Assembly (NCBI GenBank): GCA_046596195.1
Contig: JBKJNA010000027.1
Coordinates: forward strand, 913 to 64,912
Direction: 5' to 3'
From: Acidimicrobiales bacterium
GTDB lineage: Bacteria; Actinomycetota; Acidimicrobiia; Acidimicrobiales; GCA-2861595
Length of the DNA stretch: 64,000 bases
Under the pieces are notes generated by a model that saw only the letters and a list, made by a program, of their open reading frames with translations, had not been told where the DNA came from and made no database searches. This document shows positions 3,179-49,318 of the stretch, piece after piece. Within the stretch, counting starts at the first letter, position 1. Every line of letters begins with the position of its first letter. The position numbers and the translations under genes are program-made.

Positions 3179-4319
3179 TGTCCCGGACCACCCTGGGCAC
3201 CCGCTTGGAGATGCCGCACAGGATCTCGTAGGCGATGGTGTCGAGGCGGCCGGCCCAGTCGTCGGCGGTGATCTCCTCGTCGCCCTGACGCCCGAGCAGC
3301 ACCACCTCGTCGCCGGCCGCCACGACGTCGCCCGGACCGCAGTCCACCATGAGCTGGTCCATGGTGACGGTGCCGGCGATCGGCCTTCGCCGGCCGCCGA
3401 CGAGCACCTCGCCGGCCACCGCCGACAGCCGCCGGGGCACGCCGTCGGCGTACCCGAGGGGCACGGTGGCCACCACCGAGTCAGCCGCCAGGGTGTAGCG
3501 CAGCCCGTAGGACACCCGCTCGCCGGCGGCCAGCGGCCGGGCCAGGCTCACCCTCGACCGGAGGGAGAGCGCCGGTCGCAGGGGCGGGCAGCCGTCCGGG
3601 AGGGGGACGGGGGAGTAGCCGTATACCGCGATGCCGCAACGGACCATGTCGTAGCGCGACGACGCCTCCGCGAGGGCGCCGGCCGAGTTGGCGGCGTGGA
3701 GCAGGCCGGGATCGATGCCGGCCGTCCGCAGCTCGGCCAGCACCGCGTCGAAACGGTGCAGCTGCGCCGTGGTGTACGACGCCTGGCCCGGCTCGTCGGC
3801 CACGGCCAGGTGCGTCCAGGTGCCGCCGAGGCGCAGACCCGGCGCATCGTCGATGGCCCGGGCGAGGGCGAGGGCATCCGCCGGGTCGGCGCCCACCCGG
3901 TGCATCCCGGTGTCCACCTTCAGGTGTGCGACCAAGGGCTCGCCACCCGCAGCGCCGGCGCTCGAGGCAGCGACCACACCGCCGGGCGTGTAGAGGGTGG
4001 GCGTCAGGCCCGCCGCCCGTACTGCGGCCATGGAGGCGGCGGGTGGCTCGGCCAGCAACAGGACCGGTGCATCGACGCCCCCGTCCCGCAACGCCTGGCC
4101 TTCCTCGACCAGCGCCACCGCCAGCCACGTGGCGCCACCGTCGAGGGCGGCCCGGGCGACGTCGACCGAGCCGTGGCCGTAGCCGTCCGCCTTCACCACC
4201 GCGCAGACGGCGGCGGGGGAGCACCGCTCGATCAGGACGCCGACGTTGTGGCGGACGGCGGCCAGGTCGATCTCCGCCCACGTGGCCCGCCATGCGCCGG
4301 CCACGTTCGTGTCCACCAC
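3171..4319 (-). CDS. alr: Alanine racemase
   Basis: Contains AVVKADGYGHG (PLP-lysine motif) and a C-terminal SYGxxY-type segment; 382 aa. Confidence 0.9.
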   Translation of the reverse strand: MVDTNVAGAWRATWAEIDLAAVRHNVGVLIERCSPAAVCAVVKADGYGHGSVDVARAALDGGATWLAVALVEEGQALRDGGVDAPVLLLAEPPAASMAAVRAAGLTPTLYTPGGVVAASSAGAAGGEPLVAHLKVDTGMHRVGADPADALALARAIDDAPGLRLGGTWTHLAVADEPGQASYTTAQLHRFDAVLAELRTAGIDPGLLHAANSAGALAEASSRYDMVRCGIAVYGYSPVPLPDGCPPLRPALSLRSRVSLARPLAAGERVSYGLRYTLAADSVVATVPLGYADGVPRRLSAVAGEVLVGGRRRPIAGTVTMDQLMVDCGPGDVVAAGDEVVLLGRQGDEEITADDWAGRLDTIAYEILCGISKRVPRVVRDRA

Positions 4320-7439: not shown

Positions 7440-7919
7440 ATGGAGGCCGCCCGGCCGGCTATCGAGGCCGACGTGCCCCGGCTGGCCGACCTTTGCCGGA
7501 TGGCCCTCGCCGAGTTGGGGGCCCGGGAGCGGGGCGGGGCGGTGTTCGTGGCGCGCGAGGCGCGGGCCGAACCGGTCGATACCGGGTTGGCGGCCGCGGT
7601 GGCCGACCCCGACGTGGTCGTGATCGCCGGCATGCTCGACGACGTGGTGCTCGGCTATGCCACCGGCCGGGTGGAGGGCCTGCGGGACGGGACCTCGCTC
7701 GGCATCATCGACGAGTTGTTCGTCGAACCGGACGCCCGGGCCATCGGGGTGGGCGAGGCGATGATGAACCAACTGCTCGAGTGGTTCCGGCAGCGGACGT
7801 GCATCGGCGTCGACTCGACGGCCCTGCCCGGGGCGCGCGAGACCAAGAACTTCTTCGAAGAATCCGGCTTTACGGCCCGCCTGCTGGTGATGCACCACCG
7901 GATGAGCCCCCCGCCGTGA
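7440..7919 (+). CDS. GNAT family N-acetyltransferase
   Basis: Contains [20 protein letters not shown] (acetyl-CoA binding Q/RxxGxG/A motif); 159 aa. Confidence 0.8.
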
Positions 7920-7989
7920 CCGGCCCGGGAGGACGGTCCATCAACAGCTCGCTGGTGCAACGTCCCGAAGGGATGGCGCGCCAGTGACC
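7916..7989 (+). repeat. MIRU-like 68-bp interspersed repeat, copy A
   Basis: GTGACCGGCCCGGGAGGACGGTCC...CTGGTGCAACGTCCCGAAGGGATGGCGCGCCA|GTGACC, about 85% identical to the units at 29879-30016. It exactly fills the GNAT-NUDIX gap. Confidence 0.85.
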
Positions 7990-8415
7990 CTGCCCGTGGA
8001 GCACATGCAGACCCTGCGGCCCGAGGTCTGCGTCGGGGCGGTGACCGTCGATGCGGAGCGCCTGCTCCTGGTCCGCCGCGGGCACGGCCCCGCGGCCGGC
8101 GAGTGGTCGGTACCGGGGGGTCGGGTGGAGTGGGGCGAGACGCTGGCCGAGGCGGTCCTGCGCGAGGTGGCGGAGGAGACAGGCCTCGAGGGCATGTGCG
8201 ACGAGCTCATCGGATGGGTCGAGCGCATCGACGACGACCACCACTTCGTGATCCTGGACTTCCGGGTCAGCGTGCTCGACCCGGCCGACCCGGTGGCGGG
8301 ATCGGATGCGGCCGAGGCGGCGTGGGTCCCCCTCATCGACGTGGCCGACCTCAACCTGGTGGACGGCCTGGCGGAGTTCCTCCACGAGCACGGGATCCTC
8401 GACGTCATCACCTGA
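7984..8415 (+). CDS. NUDIX hydrolase
   Basis: Nudix box [24 protein letters not shown]. The start is GTG 7984 (inside the repeat) or ATG 8002. Confidence 0.85.
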
Positions 8416-16210: not shown

Positions 16211-17047
16211 ATGCGCCGGCTCACGATGTTCCTCACCCTCCTCGCAGCGACCGCGTCGTTCGCGGTGGCCGCTCCCGTCCCCGCACACGCGGCGGTGCTC
16301 AGCGCCACGCTGGTTCCCACGCCCACTGGCCTCGGGTACTGGCTGGCCAACGCCGATGGCGGGGTCTTCGCCTACGGCGACGCCCCGTTCCTCGGATCGG
16401 CCGCCGATCTCCGCCTCAACGGCCCGGTGGTCGGGATGGCCCGCACGCCGACCGGGCAGGGCTACTGGCTGGCCACGTCGGGAGGCGGCGTCTTCGCCTA
16501 CGGCGACGCCAACTTCGTGGGATCGGTCGCGTCCATCCAGGTTTCGCAGCCCATCGTCGACATCGTGGCCACCCCCAAGGGCGACGGCTACTGGCTGGTG
16601 TCGGCTGACGGCGGCGTGATCCCGTTCGGCAAGGCCACGTTCCAGGGGTCGCTGTCGACCACCGGCATCAAGCCGACCAAGGCGGTCGTGGGCATGGCGG
16701 CGACGCCGAGCGGGAATGGATACTGGCTGGTGGGGGGCGACGGTGGCGTCTACGCCTACGGCGACGCACGCTTCGTGGGATCGACCGGCGCCCTCCGCCT
16801 GAACCGGCCCGTGGTCGGCATGGCCCGCACGCCGAGCGGCGCCGGCTACTGGCTGGTGGCGTCCGACGGGGGCGTCTTCGCCTTCGGCGACGCCCGTTTC
16901 GCCGGCTCCACCGGGGCGATCCGGCTGAACCAGCCGGTCCTGCGTATGGCGCCCACGCCCTCGGGCGCCGGCTACCTGCTGGTGGCCTCGGACGGCGGCG
17001 TCTTCGCCTTCGGCGACGCCCGCTTCGTGGGGTCCCCCGCCGCCTGA
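16211..17047 (+). CDS. Secreted repeat protein with six ~42-aa GYWLV..DGGVFAFGDA.F.GS blades (putative beta-propeller)
   Basis: Signal peptide, then 6 tandem repeats. AGGAGG sits 7 nt upstream of the ATG. Confidence 0.75.
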   Translation: MRRLTMFLTLLAATASFAVAAPVPAHAAVLSATLVPTPTGLGYWLANADGGVFAYGDAPFLGSAADLRLNGPVVGMARTPTGQGYWLATSGGGVFAYGDANFVGSVASIQVSQPIVDIVATPKGDGYWLVSADGGVIPFGKATFQGSLSTTGIKPTKAVVGMAATPSGNGYWLVGGDGGVYAYGDARFVGSTGALRLNRPVVGMARTPSGAGYWLVASDGGVFAFGDARFAGSTGAIRLNQPVLRMAPTPSGAGYLLVASDGGVFAFGDARFVGSPAA

Positions 17048-23646: not shown

Positions 23647-25228
23647 GGAGTGGGGGTCGGGGGCGGGCGTCCCAGGTCGGGATGAGGTGGCGGGCGGCGC
23701 GGGCCTCGTCGACCCGGCCGACCGGCGTGGACCGGGGGGCGGCGGACGCGCCTTCGGGGTCGGCGGCGATGCGCTCGAGGGCCTGGGCCAGGGCCTCCAT
23801 GGTCTGGGGGCTCTCGGTCTCGGTGGGCTCGATCATGAGCGCCTCCTCCACGATGAGGGGAAAGTAGACGGTTGGGGCGTGGAAGCCCTCCTCCAGGAGG
23901 CGCTTGGCCACGTCGACCGCCTTGAGGCCGGCGGCGCGCTTGAGCGACGCCGCCGATGCCACGAACTCGTGCATGCCGGGGCGGTCGTAGGGGATGTCGT
24001 AGGTACCCCGCAGCCGGTGGCGCAGCCAGTTGGCGTTGAGCACCGCCGCCTCGGCCACCTTGCGCAGGCCGTCGCCGCCGTTGGCCAGGATGTACGAGTA
24101 CGCCCGGGCGAGGGCGAGGGCGTTGCCGTGCCACGAGTGGACCCGCCCGATCGACCTCGCCGGCGTCACCCACCCCCACGCACCGTCGTCGCCCATCACC
24201 GGCACCGGGCCGGGCAGGTAGGGCGCCAGCCGTTCGGAGACGGCAACAGGGCCGGCGCCGGGCCCGCCGCCGCCATGGGGCACGGCGAAGGTCTTGTGCA
24301 GGTTCATGTGCACGATGTCGAAGCCCATGTCGCCCGGCCGGGTGACGCCGAGGATGGCGTTGAGGTTGGCGCCGTCGTAGTACAGGAGACCGCCCACCTC
24401 GTGGACGGCGGCCGCGATCTCGGCGATATCCTCCTCGAACAGGCCGAGAGTGTTGGGGTTGGTGAGCATGATCCCCGCCACGTCGTCGTCGAGGCGGTCG
24501 CGCAGGGCCGCCACGTCGACGCAACCTCTGGCGTCTGACGGCACGGTAACGGTGGTGTAGCCGCCGAGGGTGACCGATGCCGGGTTGGTGCCGTGGGCCG
24601 AGTCGGGGATGATCACCTTGGTGCGCTGGCGCCCCTGGTCACGGTGCCAGGCCCGCATGAGCAGCAGCCCGGTGAGCTCGCCCGCCGCGCCCGCCGGCGG
24701 CTGGAGCGTGGCGGCATGCATGCCCGTGACGGCGCACAGGCGGGCGGCCAGATCGGCCAGCACCTCCATCCAGCCCTGGGTGAGGTTGGCCGGGGCCGAC
24801 GGATGGGCGCCGGCCAGGCCGGCCAGCGACGCCGCGTCGTCGCACAGCTTGGGGTTGTACTTCATGGTGCACGACCCGAGGGGGTAGGCCCCGAGGTCGA
24901 CCGAGTACTGCCGGGCGCTCAGCCGGGTGACGTGGCCCACCAGGTCGCGCTCGGACACCTCGGGCAGCGCCAGCGGCTCCGGTCGGAGGTGACCGGCCGG
25001 CACCAGCTCCTCCGCCGTCCACTCGGGGACGCCCGTGGTACGGAACGACCACGCCGACCGTCCCGGGGACGAAAGCTCGAAGACGGTGGGCTCCTCGGCC
25101 CGCCCCATGATCGGGGCGCTCAGGGCCCGCCCGCCGGGGGCGCCCCCCGTCTGTGCCTTCTCCCCGGCCGGGGCCCCATCCCCGGCCTCCTCGCCGAGCG
25201 GGGTCCCCATCCCCGCCGGCGCCGTCAT
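23636..25228 (-). CDS. gcvPB: Glycine dehydrogenase (aminomethyl-transferring) subunit 2
   Basis: Contains FHAPTVYFP, HMNLHKTF (PLP lysine) and DSAHGTNPAS. The ATG overlaps the gcvPA stop as ATGA. Confidence 0.9.
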   Translation of the reverse strand: MTAPAGMGTPLGEEAGDGAPAGEKAQTGGAPGGRALSAPIMGRAEEPTVFELSSPGRSAWSFRTTGVPEWTAEELVPAGHLRPEPLALPEVSERDLVGHVTRLSARQYSVDLGAYPLGSCTMKYNPKLCDDAASLAGLAGAHPSAPANLTQGWMEVLADLAARLCAVTGMHAATLQPPAGAAGELTGLLLMRAWHRDQGRQRTKVIIPDSAHGTNPASVTLGGYTTVTVPSDARGCVDVAALRDRLDDDVAGIMLTNPNTLGLFEEDIAEIAAAVHEVGGLLYYDGANLNAILGVTRPGDMGFDIVHMNLHKTFAVPHGGGGPGAGPVAVSERLAPYLPGPVPVMGDDGAWGWVTPARSIGRVHSWHGNALALARAYSYILANGGDGLRKVAEAAVLNANWLRHRLRGTYDIPYDRPGMHEFVASAASLKRAAGLKAVDVAKRLLEEGFHAPTVYFPLIVEEALMIEPTETESPQTMEALAQALERIAADPEGASAAPRSTPVGRVDEARAARHLIPTWDARPRPPLPSK

Positions 25229-28646: not shown

Positions 28647-28671
28647 CCACTGTGACCCGGTGCCACAGTGG
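28647..28671. promoter_or_regulatory. Perfect dyad CCACTGTG-N9-CACAGTGG upstream of the MerR gene
   Basis: 8-bp arms at 28647-28654 and 28664-28671, 39-63 nt upstream of the MerR ATG. The right arm overlaps the first 17-bp repeat unit. Confidence 0.5.
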
Positions 28672-28733
28672 CTGAATTACGACAGTGGCTGAATTACGAC
28701 AGTGGCTGAATTACAACAGTGGCGGAATTACAC
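28666..28733. repeat. 17-bp tandem repeat x4 (CAGTGGCTGAATTACGA)
   Basis: Units at 28666, 28683, 28700 and 28717. The first two are identical, the third has 1 change and the fourth has 3 changes. The sequence is AT-rich relative to the genome. Confidence 0.9.
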
Positions 28734-28797: not shown

Positions 28798-29313
28798 TCA
28801 GGAGCTGAAGTCCTCGGGGCGGATGCCCTCGATGAACTGGCGGAACTGCGAGACGAGCTCGTCGGGAGCGGTCTCGTCGTCGTCGTCCTCGGCGTCGAGC
28901 ACCACGCCGGCGGCGTCGAGGAGGTCGTCCTCAGCGAAGATGGGCGTGCCCGTGCGGGCGGCCAGGGCGATGGCGTCGGACGGTCGGGCCGAAATGACCT
29001 GGGACTCGCCGCCCTGGCGCAGGTGCAGCTCGGCGTAGTAGGTGCCGCTGCGTCCGTCCTCGCCCATCCGAAGCTCGGTGACGACGACCCGCTCCAGCGT
29101 GGCGCCCAGGGCGACGAGGAGGTCCCGCATGAGGTCGTGGGTCATGGGCCGCGGCGGCACGACCTTCTGCAGGGCGAACGCGATGGCGGTGGCCTCGGGC
29201 GCGCCGATGAAGATGGGCAGCGTTCGCCGGGCGCCCTCGACCTCCTGGAGTAACACGACCGGATTGTTGGTGGGCAGCTCAACGCGTACTGCGGCGAGGT
29301 GCATCTCCACCAT
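28798..29313 (-). CDS. Bifunctional nuclease family protein (DUF151; Rv1829-like)
   Basis: Contains NNPVVLLQE...RTLPIFIGAPEATAIAFAL...RPMTHDL...ARPSDAIALA and an acidic tail. Confidence 0.8.
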   Translation of the reverse strand: MVEMHLAAVRVELPTNNPVVLLQEVEGARRTLPIFIGAPEATAIAFALQKVVPPRPMTHDLMRDLLVALGATLERVVVTELRMGEDGRSGTYYAELHLRQGGESQVISARPSDAIALAARTGTPIFAEDDLLDAAGVVLDAEDDDDETAPDELVSQFRQFIEGIRPEDFSS

Positions 29314-29322
29314 GAGCCAACC

Positions 29323-29880
29323 CTACCGTGCGAAGAACTGCTCCACGTGCGCATCGGGATCGGCCCGCAGCGCCGCCAGGTCGCCCGCCGCCACGAGTTC
29401 CAGGTTCCGGTAGCGCTCGGCGAAATCGAGGCCGTAGCCGACCACGAAGTCGTCGCCGATGGTGAACCCGACGAAGCGCACCGGCGTGGGCACGATGCGC
29501 CGGGTGGCCTTGTCGAGCAACGCGCAGGCCTCGAGGCTGCGCGGGCCGCGCCGGCCCAGCTGGCCGAGCAGGTAGGTGAGGGTGAGCCCGGTGTCGACGA
29601 TGTCCTCGACCAGCACCACGTCGCGCCCGGCGATGTCGATGTCGAGGTCCTTCACGAGGCGGACCCGGCCGGTGTCGGGCGCGTACGACGAGATGGCCAG
29701 GAAGTCCACCTCGGGGACGATCGACAGCGCCCGCACCAGGTCGGCCAGGAACGGGACGCTGCCCTTGAGCACGGCGACGAGCACCACGCCGTCGCCGTAG
29801 ACAGCCGAGATCTCGTCCGCCAACCGGGCCACGCCGGCGCGCAGCTCGTGGACCGGGATCAGGACCCGGGCGTCGGTCAT
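29323..29880 (-). CDS. hpt: Hypoxanthine phosphoribosyltransferase
   Basis: PRPP motif VVLVEDIVDTGLTL, with KGS..F.ADL and YGLDF. The in-frame ATG at 29880 gives 185 aa; the ORF extension to 29979 is repeat-derived. Confidence 0.9.
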   Translation of the reverse strand: MTDARVLIPVHELRAGVARLADEISAVYGDGVVLVAVLKGSVPFLADLVRALSIVPEVDFLAISSYAPDTGRVRLVKDLDIDIAGRDVVLVEDIVDTGLTLTYLLGQLGRRGPRSLEACALLDKATRRIVPTPVRFVGFTIGDDFVVGYGLDFAERYRNLELVAAGDLAALRADPDAHVEQFFAR

Positions 29881-30033
29881 GACCGGCCCGGGAGGACGGT
29901 CCCATGAACAACTCGCTGGTGCGACATCACGAAGGGATGGTGCACCAGTGACCGGCCCGGGAGGACGGTCCATGAGCAACTCAGTGGTGCGCCATGCCGA
30001 AGGGCATGGTGCACCAGTGACCGGTCCGGCCCT
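29879..30033 (+). repeat. MIRU-like repeat array: two 69-bp units plus a 17-bp partial unit
   Basis: Units at 29879-29947 and 29948-30016, with partial GTGACCGGTCCGGCCC at 30017-30033. The orientation is the same as copy A, but the flanking genes are on the opposite strand. Confidence 0.85.
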
Positions 30034-30090
30034 TCTGGTCGGTGAAACAGTGCGAAGTTCACACCGATTCGCCGACCGGAACGCGGCGGC

Positions 30091-31155
30091 TCACCCGCCC
30101 GAGAGGCGGCGCAGCGACTGGCGCAACACGGCGGCCCGCAGGCTCTGCCCCAGGCGGGTGAGCTCTTCGAGGGACTCCACCGCCTGACGGCGGGCCTCGG
30201 GGTTGCGCTGCTTGAGCAGCGGCGTGACGATCTGCTCGAACAGGCCGGCCTCGCGTTCGGCCGAGTTCTTGTAGATCCGCAGGTGACGGCCCTCAATGCC
30301 GAAGCTGGCGAAGCCCACGGCCAGGTTGGCCACGACCAGGGCCTCCTCGTCGTAGTACACGGTGCCGGCCACGGGCCGGCCGGCGATGAACCCGTACCTC
30401 TCCAGCTCCCGAAGGCGGTCGTAGGGCAGGCCGGTGGCCGACGCCAGTTCCTCGAGGGAGAGGCTCACGCCGCTCATGCCGGCCGACAGGCTGGTGGCAT
30501 GGGCGGCGGGGGGCGGCGGCCTGGTGGGCGGTGTCAGCGGTTGAGACGGCTCGACCGCCGGCGGGGGGGCTGCAGCAGGGGCGGGGCCAGGGGCCACTAC
30601 GGGTGGGGCGGCCATCGCCACCTCGGCCGCCGGGACAGTGGGCTTGTGGCCGGCGGGGGCCGGCGGAGCGGCAACCGGAGCCGCCGGAGCGGGCTGGGCG
30701 GCAACCGGTGGCGGTGAAGCGAGCGGGCCGGGGGCGGCGGCCGGCGACGCGGGCGCCGCGGCAACCGGGGCGGGAGGAGGCGGGGCGGTGGCGGCAACCG
30801 GCCCGGGGCCCGGTGGCGCCACCGGAGGTGCGTCGACCACGGCGGTGGCGAGACTGTCCCTCCCGGCAGCGGGCACCGGCCCGCCGTCGTCGGCGCCGGC
30901 GTCGTCGCCCGTGCTCACACCGAGGCGGCCCTTGATCACCTTCAGGGGCAGGAAGTGCTCGCGCTGCTGGCGAAGGATCCACCGCAGCCGGTCGACGTCG
31001 GGCTCGTAGAACTTCCGGTACCCCGAGGCCGTTCGCTCGGGGTCGAGCAGGCCCTGGCTCTCCAGAAAGCGGATCTTCGAGATGGTGACGTCGGGGAACT
31101 CGTCCTTGAGGAGGGACAGCACCTCACCGATGGACAGGTACGCCCGGTCCCCCAC
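30091..31155 (-). CDS. MerR family regulator with a long Pro/Ala-rich linker (Rv1828 / FtsR-like)
   Basis: Contains LSIGEVLSLLKDEFPDVTISKIRFLESQGLL...SGYRKFYEPDVDRLRWIL, and a C-terminal second MerR-like dimerisation region. Confidence 0.8.
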   Translation of the reverse strand: MGDRAYLSIGEVLSLLKDEFPDVTISKIRFLESQGLLDPERTASGYRKFYEPDVDRLRWILRQQREHFLPLKVIKGRLGVSTGDDAGADDGGPVPAAGRDSLATAVVDAPPVAPPGPGPVAATAPPPPAPVAAAPASPAAAPGPLASPPPVAAQPAPAAPVAAPPAPAGHKPTVPAAEVAMAAPPVVAPGPAPAAAPPPAVEPSQPLTPPTRPPPPAAHATSLSAGMSGVSLSLEELASATGLPYDRLRELERYGFIAGRPVAGTVYYDEEALVVANLAVGFASFGIEGRHLRIYKNSAEREAGLFEQIVTPLLKQRNPEARRQAVESLEELTRLGQSLRAAVLRQSLRRLSGG

Positions 31156-44174: not shown

Positions 44175-45227
44175 TCAGGGCTTTCGGGTGGTCGTGGTGG
44201 TTACCGGTCTCGTGGTGGGGACGGTCGTGACGGCCGGACCGGTGGTGGTGGTCACCGGTCTGGTGGTGGGGGCGGTGGTGACGGCCGGACGGGTGGTCGT
44301 GGTCACCGGGCTGGTCGTGGGGGTGGTGGAGCCGGGAGGGCGGCTCGTCGTGGCGCCCGGGACAGTCGAGGCGACCGGCGCCGTGGTGACCGGCGTCGGC
44401 GGGTCGGCGCATGCCGGCAACGCCAGCTGGAACTGTTCGGCGCCATTGACGACGAGCCGCAAGGCCTGCACCCCGACGCCCTGGCAGGTCAGCTCCCAGC
44501 GGGCCCGTCCGGTGGCATCGGTCACCGTGGGGTTCGCCAGACCGACGCTCCAGCCCGACCCGCCCGCCAGCTCCACGGTGGCGCCCGCCATGGCCACACC
44601 GTTCACCACCCCGCCCGGGTCGACCGAGCGGTTGCTCAGCTGCAGGACCAGGTTGCTGGTCCCGCCCACGACCGGCGGGTTGGGCGCAATCGCCGGCTGC
44701 GGCGTGGTGCCGAAGTTGCGCTCCAGCTTCAGATCCACCGAATAGGTCTCCGTCGCTCCGACGAAGAAGAAGGCGGGGACGGCGATGGCGATGTCAGGCA
44801 CCCGCCACGCCCGGACCCGGTAGCCGCCGCCGAGCACGTTCTGGGCCGACCAGCTGCCGTCGGGGGCCGAGGCCACGTCGATGCCGGCGACCGACCTGCC
44901 CACCAACCGCTCCACCCGGATCGTTGCGCCGTCCACCGGAGTGCCGTCCGGCCCGACCACCGTGCCCTTGATGGTGCCCTTGCCCGGCCCCACCACCACG
45001 GTGGTCATGGTGGCCCGCCCGGCGGGCACGGCCGGCAGGGCCACCCCGGTGAAGTCCGGCGGGGAGGTGGTGGACGGCCGGGCCTGCGTGCTGGGCGGCG
45101 GCGGCAGCGGGTCGAGAGCGACGTCGCCGCCCGAGCACGCGGCCAGGAGGGCAGCGACCGCCAGTGCGGCCACCACCGACCGCAGCGTGCCACGGGCGCC
45201 GACGGCGGCGCCCGCCGGGCCGAGCAC
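44175..45227 (-). CDS. Lipoprotein with a carboxypeptidase-regulatory-like domain and a Thr/Pro-rich repeat tail
   Basis: Lipobox ALLAACSGG. GTIKGTVVGPDGTPVDGATIRVE is CarboxypepD_reg-like. The C-terminus is (PVTTTTxPAVTTxPTTR)n. Start GTG 45227 lies within the long ORF 44175..46931. Confidence 0.65.
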   Translation of the reverse strand: MLGPAGAAVGARGTLRSVVAALAVAALLAACSGGDVALDPLPPPPSTQARPSTTSPPDFTGVALPAVPAGRATMTTVVVGPGKGTIKGTVVGPDGTPVDGATIRVERLVGRSVAGIDVASAPDGSWSAQNVLGGGYRVRAWRVPDIAIAVPAFFFVGATETYSVDLKLERNFGTTPQPAIAPNPPVVGGTSNLVLQLSNRSVDPGGVVNGVAMAGATVELAGGSGWSVGLANPTVTDATGRARWELTCQGVGVQALRLVVNGAEQFQLALPACADPPTPVTTAPVASTVPGATTSRPPGSTTPTTSPVTTTTRPAVTTAPTTRPVTTTTGPAVTTVPTTRPVTTTTTRKP

Positions 45228-49213: not shown

Positions 49214-49318
49214 AATGGACGGCAGCGGGTGGGGATGGGGTCCCCACCTCGCGGAGGAGGCCGGGGTTGGGGCCCCGGCCGGGCAGATTGAAATGGACGG
49301 CAGCGGGTGGGGATGGGG
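49214..49318. repeat. 27-bp direct repeat x2 (AATGGACGGCAGCGGGTGGGGATGGGG)
   Basis: Exact copies at 49214-49240 and 49292-49318 in the GroES-like / MerR divergent region. The first copy is followed by TCCCCACC, which forms GGTGGGGA-tgggg-TCCCCACC. Confidence 0.9.

Follow-up and report, generated by a model that had tools for sequence, protein, structure and literature searches.

A dispersed repeat at gene start codons in Acidimicrobiales, a likely small mobile element with a coupling mini-ORF

For decades, tuberculosis strains have been typed by means of mycobacterial interspersed repetitive units (MIRUs); the movement of these units and their effects on operons are poorly understood, and they have been treated as a mycobacterial peculiarity. 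The strategy of inserting at a start codon and carrying an open reading frame (ORF) coupled to the displaced gene has so far been described only for them. Here a repeat of similar organization is reported from an uncultured member of the Acidimicrobiales. The window analyzed is a stretch of 64,000 nucleotides from contig JBKJNA010000027.1 (assembly GCA_046596195.1), and the repeat unit under study lies between the genes of a GNAT acetyltransferase and a NUDIX hydrolase. We consider it likely that this unit belongs to a family of small mobile elements of Acidimicrobiales, which are non-autonomous and equipped with a coupling mini-ORF.

MIRUs, as described by Supply et al. 1997 and summarized in PMC3184786 and PMC12548453, are mobile repeats of 40-100 bp, which insert at start codons. 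An ORF within the MIRU stands in a -4 nt coupling to the gene (PMC3184786, Delihas; PMC12548453, a 2025 review on translational coupling), and short direct repeats, empty as well as filled sites, and inverted repeats rich in G+C inside the unit are further features (PMC3184786; PMC12548453). Unit lengths of 77 and 53 bp are on record (PMC4213456, PMC2453075). Typically, a genome carries tens of MIRU copies, in the intergenic regions of operons. The repeat described here is likewise dispersed in actinobacterial operons, in units of 62-70 bp, found singly or in head-to-tail arrays. It is inserted at start codons, contains an ORF with a -4 overlap to the gene, includes G+C-rich inverted repeats, occurs in empty and filled sites, and has short direct repeats at its ends, with GTGAC on both sides of the insert; the MIRU lengths of 77 and 53 are 2 mod 3, as are 62, 65 and 68 here. 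It differs from MIRUs in its host class, the Acidimicrobiia, here known only from uncultured metagenome-assembled genomes (MAGs) as opposed to Mycobacterium, in its unit size (62-69 bp), and in its two-hairpin anatomy, where hairpin 1 is invariant and hairpin 2 covaries and buries the start codon. A preliminary description of the window, made from the sequence alone, had proposed a MIRU-like architecture in a non-mycobacterial host, and the functional features listed above were all found again. By this likeness, drawn from published descriptions of MIRUs, the repeat is best regarded as a functional analogue of mycobacterial MIRUs and not as a MIRU.

Other known systems are similar in part. Classical miniature inverted-repeat transposable elements (MITEs), such as Correia/NEMIS and Nezha (PMC3184786), are also short, non-autonomous and rich in stable stem-loops, leave empty and filled sites, and in some cases have become part of host reading frames or provide expression signals (PMC3184786). 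In contrast to them, the repeat has no convincing terminal inverted repeats (its consensus ends, GTGACCGGCC and GTCACTGGTG, match at 6/10 positions), no parent insertion sequence (IS) is known, though none was searched for, and its units stand, in most arrays, in sense at start codons, with a reading frame built in. The direct repeat RTGAC is present at the element ends, and may belong to the element itself. Neisseria REP2 and the Borrelia upstream repeats (PMC3184786) are dispersed directly upstream of genes, contain two internal stem-loops and supply a translational start, as is the case here; they bring promoter, ribosome binding site and ATG for independent expression (PMC3184786), whereas the present element has no promoter-like site, would rely on upstream translation and hides the start codon. 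Finally, in synthetic bicistronic or coupling cassettes (cited in PMC12548453) the stop of a leader ORF overlaps the gene start, and translating ribosomes remove inhibitory structure and deliver initiation (PMC12548453). Unlike the repeat, whose sole strong Shine-Dalgarno (SD)-like motif is about 50 nt upstream, these cassettes are engineered, with a second SD 5-10 nt before the start.

The unit at the GNAT-NUDIX junction and its dispersed copies

The sequence of the unit, re-read at 7916-7989, is exactly as quoted in the preliminary description, and the ORF list agrees with the arrangement proposed there: within a GTGA, the GNAT stop overlaps the start of a 23-codon mini-ORF, whose own stop in turn overlaps the NUDIX start (Table 1). 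The SD-like GGGAGGA, expected inside the unit, was located in hairpin 1. The unit scores an E-value of 5e-19 by nhmmer and 91 bits by the covariance model (CM) R1. When 7916-7989 was folded, two hairpins resulted, with a minimum folding energy (MFE) of -38 kcal/mol and z = -3.0; the plus strand folds better than the minus strand for all three copies of the window. Three occurrences of the 24-mer formed by the first 24 bases of the unit were counted in the window, where the expectation is 0.01.

The GTG of the unit was upheld as the NUDIX start over a later ATG, because element-free orthologues begin at the same GTGAC, and because the closest of them (L040) has ACG in place of ATG 8005. This ATG had been placed at 8002, and is actually found at 8005-8007; a GTG is also present at 7996. 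The protein is 100% identical, across 143 aa, to database protein P0001. As no promoter-like or terminator-like site was found between GNAT and NUDIX, the possibility that the element acts as a promoter of its own or as an intrinsic terminator was discarded.

All together, 78 copies were collected, grouped in 62 arrays; they come from 29 metagenome contigs and from genome bins of six Acidimicrobiales/Actinomycetota. Exact matches to a 21-mer of hairpin 1 identified 29 loci in the six MAGs (11 in nzgw85, 12 in SC-S bin.62, 4 in SMAG_U1186, plus 3 singletons), and an nhmmer profile found 42 copies in these loci and the window. Metagenomes were scanned by a gapped pattern, in which the 5' arm of hairpin 1 and the final 8 bases were the sole fixed parts; out of 120 matching loci, 91 were chance matches, removed by nhmmer, and 29 were further true loci, with 39 copies. 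Only the repeat is common to the window and the MAG loci, and the proteins flanking 33 arrays are mutually unrelated. Most arrays consist of 1 unit (47), while 2 units are found in 14 and 3 units in 1. In MIRU tandem arrays the copy number varies between strains; here, one locus was met on two metagenome contigs (L068 and L077, near-identical in unit and flanks), with one unit on each. Tandem units are identical in L020 and clearly different in L123 and L050, and this mixed identity makes both duplication and repeated insertion into the regenerated GTGAC plausible.

More copies had been expected in relatives, in a host other than a mycobacterium, and possibly as an undescribed family. The 78 copies returned by the profile and pattern searches of MAGs and metagenomes agree with the first of these expectations, and the second is in keeping with the origin of the genomic matches, all of them Acidimicrobiales or unclassified Actinomycetota MAGs. 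As to the third, no Rfam family reached its gathering threshold in the window (with the cut-off set at E ≤ 10, the lowest E-value across the element was 4.7), nothing similar to the repeat was present in the collections of viral contigs and plasmids, and no description of this family was found in the literature searched. The family looks undescribed, while the kind of element is already known.

Position, reading frame and secondary structure

The ends of the 78 copies are well defined. GTGA (46 copies) and ATGA (27 copies) are the prevailing 5' tetramers, and GTGA is the 3' tetramer of 68 copies, with C as the next base in 66 of the 70 cases; across the family the 5' R is variable and the 3' G is fixed. 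In order to place these ends relative to genes, coding was assessed by open frame length and third-position G+C content (GC3), for the 59 assessable arrays. In 50 of them a long, high-GC3 downstream gene shares the frame of the 3' GTG, in 41 a long upstream gene in sense orientation has its stop at the 5' TGA, and the two overlaps occur together in 36. Under a generous 1/6 null, the chance probability is about 1e-30 for the start and about 1e-19 for the stop. The coincidence of unit ends with stop and start codons, noted at the single junction in the preliminary description, recurs across the family; given the two counts, the repeat is primarily a start-codon element, and stop/start bridging is its commonest special case. 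An SD-like 4-mer is found upstream of the 5' RTG in 32% of the arrays, compared with 17% at control RTGAC sites, which fits the 5' RTG being the original start of the gene. As a separate observation, L002 contains at 1993-2064 a decayed copy, which has lost the 5' TGA (GAGG…). The upstream ORF continues into the element as far as a stop about 10 nt before the 3' ATGA, and thereby gains about 20 element-encoded C-terminal residues.

The period, measured for 70 units, ranges between 62 and 70 bp. The mini-ORF ends at the terminal TGA in units with a period of 62 (1 unit), 65 (17 units) and 68 (42 units), which makes 60 units with a coupled mini-ORF of 21-23 codons, from RTG to the TGA of the terminal GTGA; internal stops were found in none of the 60. 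The 5' RTG is fused in frame to the gene when the period is 66 (1 unit) or 69 (8 units), for a total of 9 of the 70, and only a single unit, with a period of 70, has the harmful frame, in which upstream ribosomes would enter the gene out of frame. This pattern fits selection for harmless insertion, and can be taken as suggestive only.

The anatomy suggests how genes may tolerate the element. It would insert beside an RTGAC at a gene start codon, usually in sense orientation. After insertion, the gene's own initiation context (SD or overlapping upstream stop) would drive translation of the 21-23 codon mini-ORF from the 5' RTG, across both hairpins, as far as the UGA of the terminal GUGA. The GUG of the same GUGA, base-paired in the foot of hairpin 2, would be the new start of the displaced gene; the ribosome translating the mini-ORF would open hairpin 2, terminate, and reinitiate 4 nt back. 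The tiny reading frame thus probably passes ribosomes on to the displaced gene, which would be still expressed and still coupled to its operon. As RTGAC is regenerated at both ends, head-to-tail arrays are allowed.

The mini-ORF could alternatively be a gene in its own right, encoding a functional peptide of 21-23 residues (MTGPGGRS…) made along with many operons. It is indeed open in 60/60 in-frame units, and the N-terminal octapeptide V/M-TGPGGRS is nearly invariant. The octapeptide, however, coincides with the nucleotide-invariant hairpin 1, and the peptide is conserved only there; the remaining residues vary freely, tracking base-pair covariation and not amino-acid conservation. Moreover, the nine units whose length fuses the frame to the downstream gene persist, as do units in antisense context. 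Altogether, a family of small protein genes appears very improbable, and the mini-ORF is better seen as the coupling device of a mobile element.

The structure was analyzed on a covariance-model alignment of the 78 copies. RNAalifold, run on a MAFFT alignment, gave hairpin 1 only, since a sequence-based alignment does not bring the arms of hairpin 2 into register; the structure was then named by hand and refitted with the covariance model. For hairpin 2, 88% of the cells are paired, and compensatory double changes are seen at 15 of the 16 pairs (114 cells). None of 500 shuffles reaches this covariation, and slid controls drop to 24-43% paired; the hand-named structure, placed on the plain MAFFT alignment, leads to the same result (12 of the 16 pairs). 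In about 95% of the copies, a conserved CRC is paired with all three bases of the GUG start. G.U pairs outnumber A.C pairs (68 vs 21, or 39 vs 20 without the start-codon column), an excess which speaks for a structure formed by the sense-strand RNA, although the alignment had itself been fitted to the model. Hairpin 1, GACCGGCC-CGGGA-GGNCGGTC, is nearly invariant, with 99% of the cells paired and no covariation. In most metagenome copies it is a perfect 8-bp stem, GACCGGCC-CGGGA-GGCCGGTC; its loop and 3' arm, left free in the metagenome set, have columns at least 95% conserved, as compared with 30-80% for the linker. In the proposed mechanism, the invariant hairpin 1 would be the part recognized by the element's mobilizer; we infer both this role and the mobilizing enzyme itself.

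The same features would also be expected of a domesticated regulatory module, kept by the host, in which hairpin 2 occludes the start so that downstream translation needs upstream translation, a factor or temperature, and hairpin 1 with its GGGAGG serves as a ribosome- or protein-binding site tuning operon stoichiometry. In favour of it are the pairing of the start codon, the covariation that holds hairpin 2, the conservation of hairpin 1 next to a drifting linker, and the G.U bias, which points to a constraint at the level of sense-strand RNA. Conservation, however, is also expected from the needs of mobilization or of harmless insertion, and the flanking genes are functionally unrelated.

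Empty and filled sites

At the GNAT-NUDIX junction, the 68 bp are absent from four relatives, L040, L036, L033 and L030 (the latter being nzgw85), whose NUDIX proteins are 95%, 90%, 89% and 96% identical to that of the window, respectively. Their empty sites have the form …GTGAC|CCTGCC…. In L040 the junction reads …ggagggaTGAggccgtcgcc GTGAC CCTGCCCGTGGAGCAC, with GTCGCC directly before GTGAC, and in the window …ccccgcc GTGAC (68 bp ending GTGAC) CCTGCCCGTGGAGCAC, so that GTGAC is found on both sides of the insert. Four relatives with an empty site at this junction imply that the element moved. In addition, units 96-100% identical were found at four loci with unrelated flanks, which would indicate recent movement. 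A vertically conserved leader or riboswitch is ruled out by the empty sites, together with the non-orthologous contexts.

The 3' end of the window GNAT gene (7895-7915, compared with L040 448-507) is without 8 nt (CATGGAGG) that are present in all the orthologues. This loss takes out the ancestral GNAT stop as well as the ancestral NUDIX SD (GGAGGGA); as a consequence, GNAT now stops at the TGA of the element, giving the stop/start overlap, and NUDIX is left without an SD of its own. The loss hints at a co-option of the element by the host, and counts in favour of the domesticated module, as NUDIX would now depend on the element. Against such a module, sites differ between species, close relatives do without the element at the same junction, and near-identical copies at unrelated loci speak of recent spread and not of long-term retention. 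Long-term domestication is, on balance, an unlikely explanation of the family, and a mobile element with a coupling mini-ORF accounts better for this distribution.

The second site of the window is found 3 nt upstream of the ATG of hpt, where two units stand in antisense to the gene (Table 1); Tandem Repeats Finder reports a period of 69 at 29880-30029, with 2.2 copies and 89% matches. The preliminary description had counted two and a quarter units at 29879-30033. The two units were found (29879-30021), while the quarter is more simply native hpt leader than a truncated third copy at 30017-30033: removal of the two units leaves CCAGAAGG-12 nt-ATGACCGAC, whose spacing equals that of the array-free L041. 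The coupling arrangement does not extend to this site. Since hpt and the MerR-like gene on the other flank are both on the minus strand, with the units antisense, nothing is coupled, and the period of 69 breaks the mini-ORF frame in both units. The site is an exception, and its junction falls on the palindrome CGGTCATGACCG, which offers ATGAC on both strands; the element appears to have used the "wrong" one. An inverted sense insertion was rejected, as it needs an extra 3-nt change, whereas direct insertion 3' of the plus-strand TGAC fits exactly.

The hpt site is empty in the relatives L041 and L042. In nzgw85 only a remnant of 15-16 nt (ATGACCGGCCCGGGA) is found beside hpt (L164 ~1170-1200, compared with window 29895-30079); some 185 nt have been lost, the native hpt leader among them, and the stop of the MerR-like gene is now 25 nt from the hpt ATG. 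It follows from the remnant that the hpt insertion predates the split from nzgw85, and that the NUDIX insertion is younger. The MerR-like gene upstream of hpt is called with a length of 301 aa in an ENA contig (L163 ~1004) and 358 aa in nzgw85 (L164), and the sole difference seen is one TAG/TCG substitution.

Table 1. Features of the two repeat sites of the window.
Feature	Position	Strand	Remarks
GNAT acetyltransferase gene	7440-7919	+	ORF; Pfam Acetyltransf_1 on orthologues
Complete repeat unit	7916-7988	+	Period 68; from 5' GTGA to 3' GTGAC; inserted at the NUDIX start codon
5' junction GTGA	7916-7919	+	GNAT stop TGA 7917-7919 overlaps mini-ORF start GTG 7916-7918
Mini-ORF	7916-7987	+	23 codons plus stop; stop TGA 7985-7987
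Hairpin 1	7916-7939	+	GGGAGGA 7927-7933 in and beside the loop; most sequence-conserved part of the family
Hairpin 2	7949-7987	+	The foot of the stem holds the GUG start and UGA stop of the 3' junction in base pairs
3' junction GTGAC	7984-7988	+	Mini-ORF TGA 7985-7987 overlaps NUDIX start GTG 7984-7986; would also regenerate the target sequence
NUDIX hydrolase gene	7984-8415	+	GTG start 7984; 143 aa; orthologues share the GTGAC start
hpt, hypoxanthine phosphoribosyltransferase	29323-29880	-	185 aa; most listed homologues also 185 aa
Repeat unit	29879-29952	+	Period 69; 5' ATGA; antisense to hpt; overlaps the hpt ATG in palindrome CGGTCATGACCG (29874-29885)
Second tandem unit	29948-30021	+	Period 69; GTGAC common with the first unit
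Native hpt 5' leader	30022-30090	-	Kept in relatives without the array (L041, L042 alignment)
MerR-like gene	30091-31155	-	Other flank of the hpt array

Movement of the element and its significance

Both reconstructed empty sites, as well as the anatomy of the unit, are compatible with a single-stranded-DNA hairpin element of the IS200/IS605 or REP/RAYT type (REP, repetitive extragenic palindrome; RAYT, REP-associated tyrosine transposase), moved by a Y1 HUH transposase and inserted 3' of TGAC without duplication. The bias for starts and for sense orientation would then result from later selection and strand-specific insertion, and the mini-ORF would be a by-product. The unit has two subterminal hairpins, and hairpin 1 is conserved in sequence, as expected of a protein-binding site; the same TGAC stands left of the element and at its right end, with the 5' R varying and the 3' G fixed; classical terminal inverted repeats are weak, as judged by eye on the consensus; and at hpt the sequence agrees with an insertion 3' of a plus-strand TGAC within the palindrome GGTCATGACC, and removal of the units restores the L041 spacing. 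REP and BIME (bacterial interspersed mosaic element) repeats are likewise hairpin-based, with possible insertion by a fixed tetranucleotide without duplication, and possible effects on translation near a stop codon are described for REP elements (PMC12306157). REPs, however, are single palindromes of 20-40 nt with GTAG/CGTC tags, for the most part outside genes, where they frequently occupy the space between convergent genes and form inverted pairs, whereas the present unit has two hairpins and no such tag, and stands in sense at gene starts, head-to-tail. TGAC is common genome-wide, yet 50/59 arrays are exactly at a start codon; selection alone explains this poorly, as other intergenic TGAC sites should tolerate insertion. 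Hairpin 2 covariation and the sense G.U excess would be expected of RNA more than of DNA that a protein recognizes, and no transposase was found, although no systematic search was made. We regard this alternative as possible though doubtful; it concerns movement only, and is compatible with the coupling model.

A still less probable extension of the mobile-element reading is a start-codon-homing cassette, whose machinery would recognize RTGAC specifically at translation starts, hairpin 1 with its exposed GGGAGG being a ribosome- or protein-binding module. If this were true, the element would be both a parasite and a portable coupling device that hosts can co-opt; the MIRU strategy would have arisen more than once, or be ancient across the Actinomycetota; and a second, structurally cleaner system would be at hand for solving the movement of such repeats.

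Several points weigh against a mobile element with a coupling mini-ORF. Both scans of the collections fixed part of the element, so that copy counts and some of the conservation are biased, and the CM-fitted alignment leans towards the modelled structure. Translation of the mini-ORF and termination-reinitiation are predicted from the anatomy, and the SD-like GGGAGG, about 50 nt from the 3' GUG, is without a clear role in the coupling model. Four to five arrays, including the hpt site of the window, are not beside a sense gene start. One early 3-bp deletion, together with a 68-bp master copy, might account for most of the frame bias in place of repeated selection; length changes that arose independently are few, too few indel events for frame selection to be claimed as proven by the length variants. 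A target-site duplication of 4-5 bp is indistinguishable from an element-borne TGAC, and neither a transposase nor any other mobilizing gene turned up, in searches not systematically aimed at one.

Other repeats are present in the window. One of them, likewise dispersed but unrelated to the first, is about 58 nt long (CCCCGGCCGGGGCCCCAwCCCCGGCCTCCTCC…GGGGTCCCCATCCCC) and is found at 25160-25217 (+), at 49231-49283 (-) and in L005 (1226-1283), with a mean identity of 81% over the three copies; it contains nested palindromes, its opposite strand carries GGAGGAGG, and the 25160 copy is located between two minus-strand ORFs. At 28665-28731 a near-perfect 17-bp tandem repeat (ACAGTGGCTGAATTACG; 3.9 copies, 96% matches), unusually A+T-rich for the genome, lies just downstream of a BFN-domain ORF (28798-29313, -). 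A repeat with a 126-bp period at 16353-17044 (5.4 copies, 67% matches), also present in the MAG loci L011 (~1990-2550) and L025 (~3210-3960) with 72-78% identity, looks like a gene for a repeat-domain protein. A tandem repeat with a 51-bp period, rich in GGTGGTGG, is found at 44190-44353 (about 3 copies, 84-88% matches).

The Acidimicrobiales repeat is a second family with MIRU logic, in a distant actinobacterial class, with a simple two-hairpin anatomy and abundant covariation; it also offers clean empty and filled sites, as well as near-identical recent copies. It is of practical relevance for the annotation of MAGs, where gene callers will be confronted with hairpin-buried GTG starts, spurious ORFs of 22 codons, proteins extended by 23 residues at the N-terminus, and operons that seem to be interrupted by intergenic gaps. 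As a natural, compact translational-coupling cassette, the element is also a candidate part for synthetic biology. All together, the family suggests that the MIRU-like strategy is a general way for a small element to occupy operons without polar effects.

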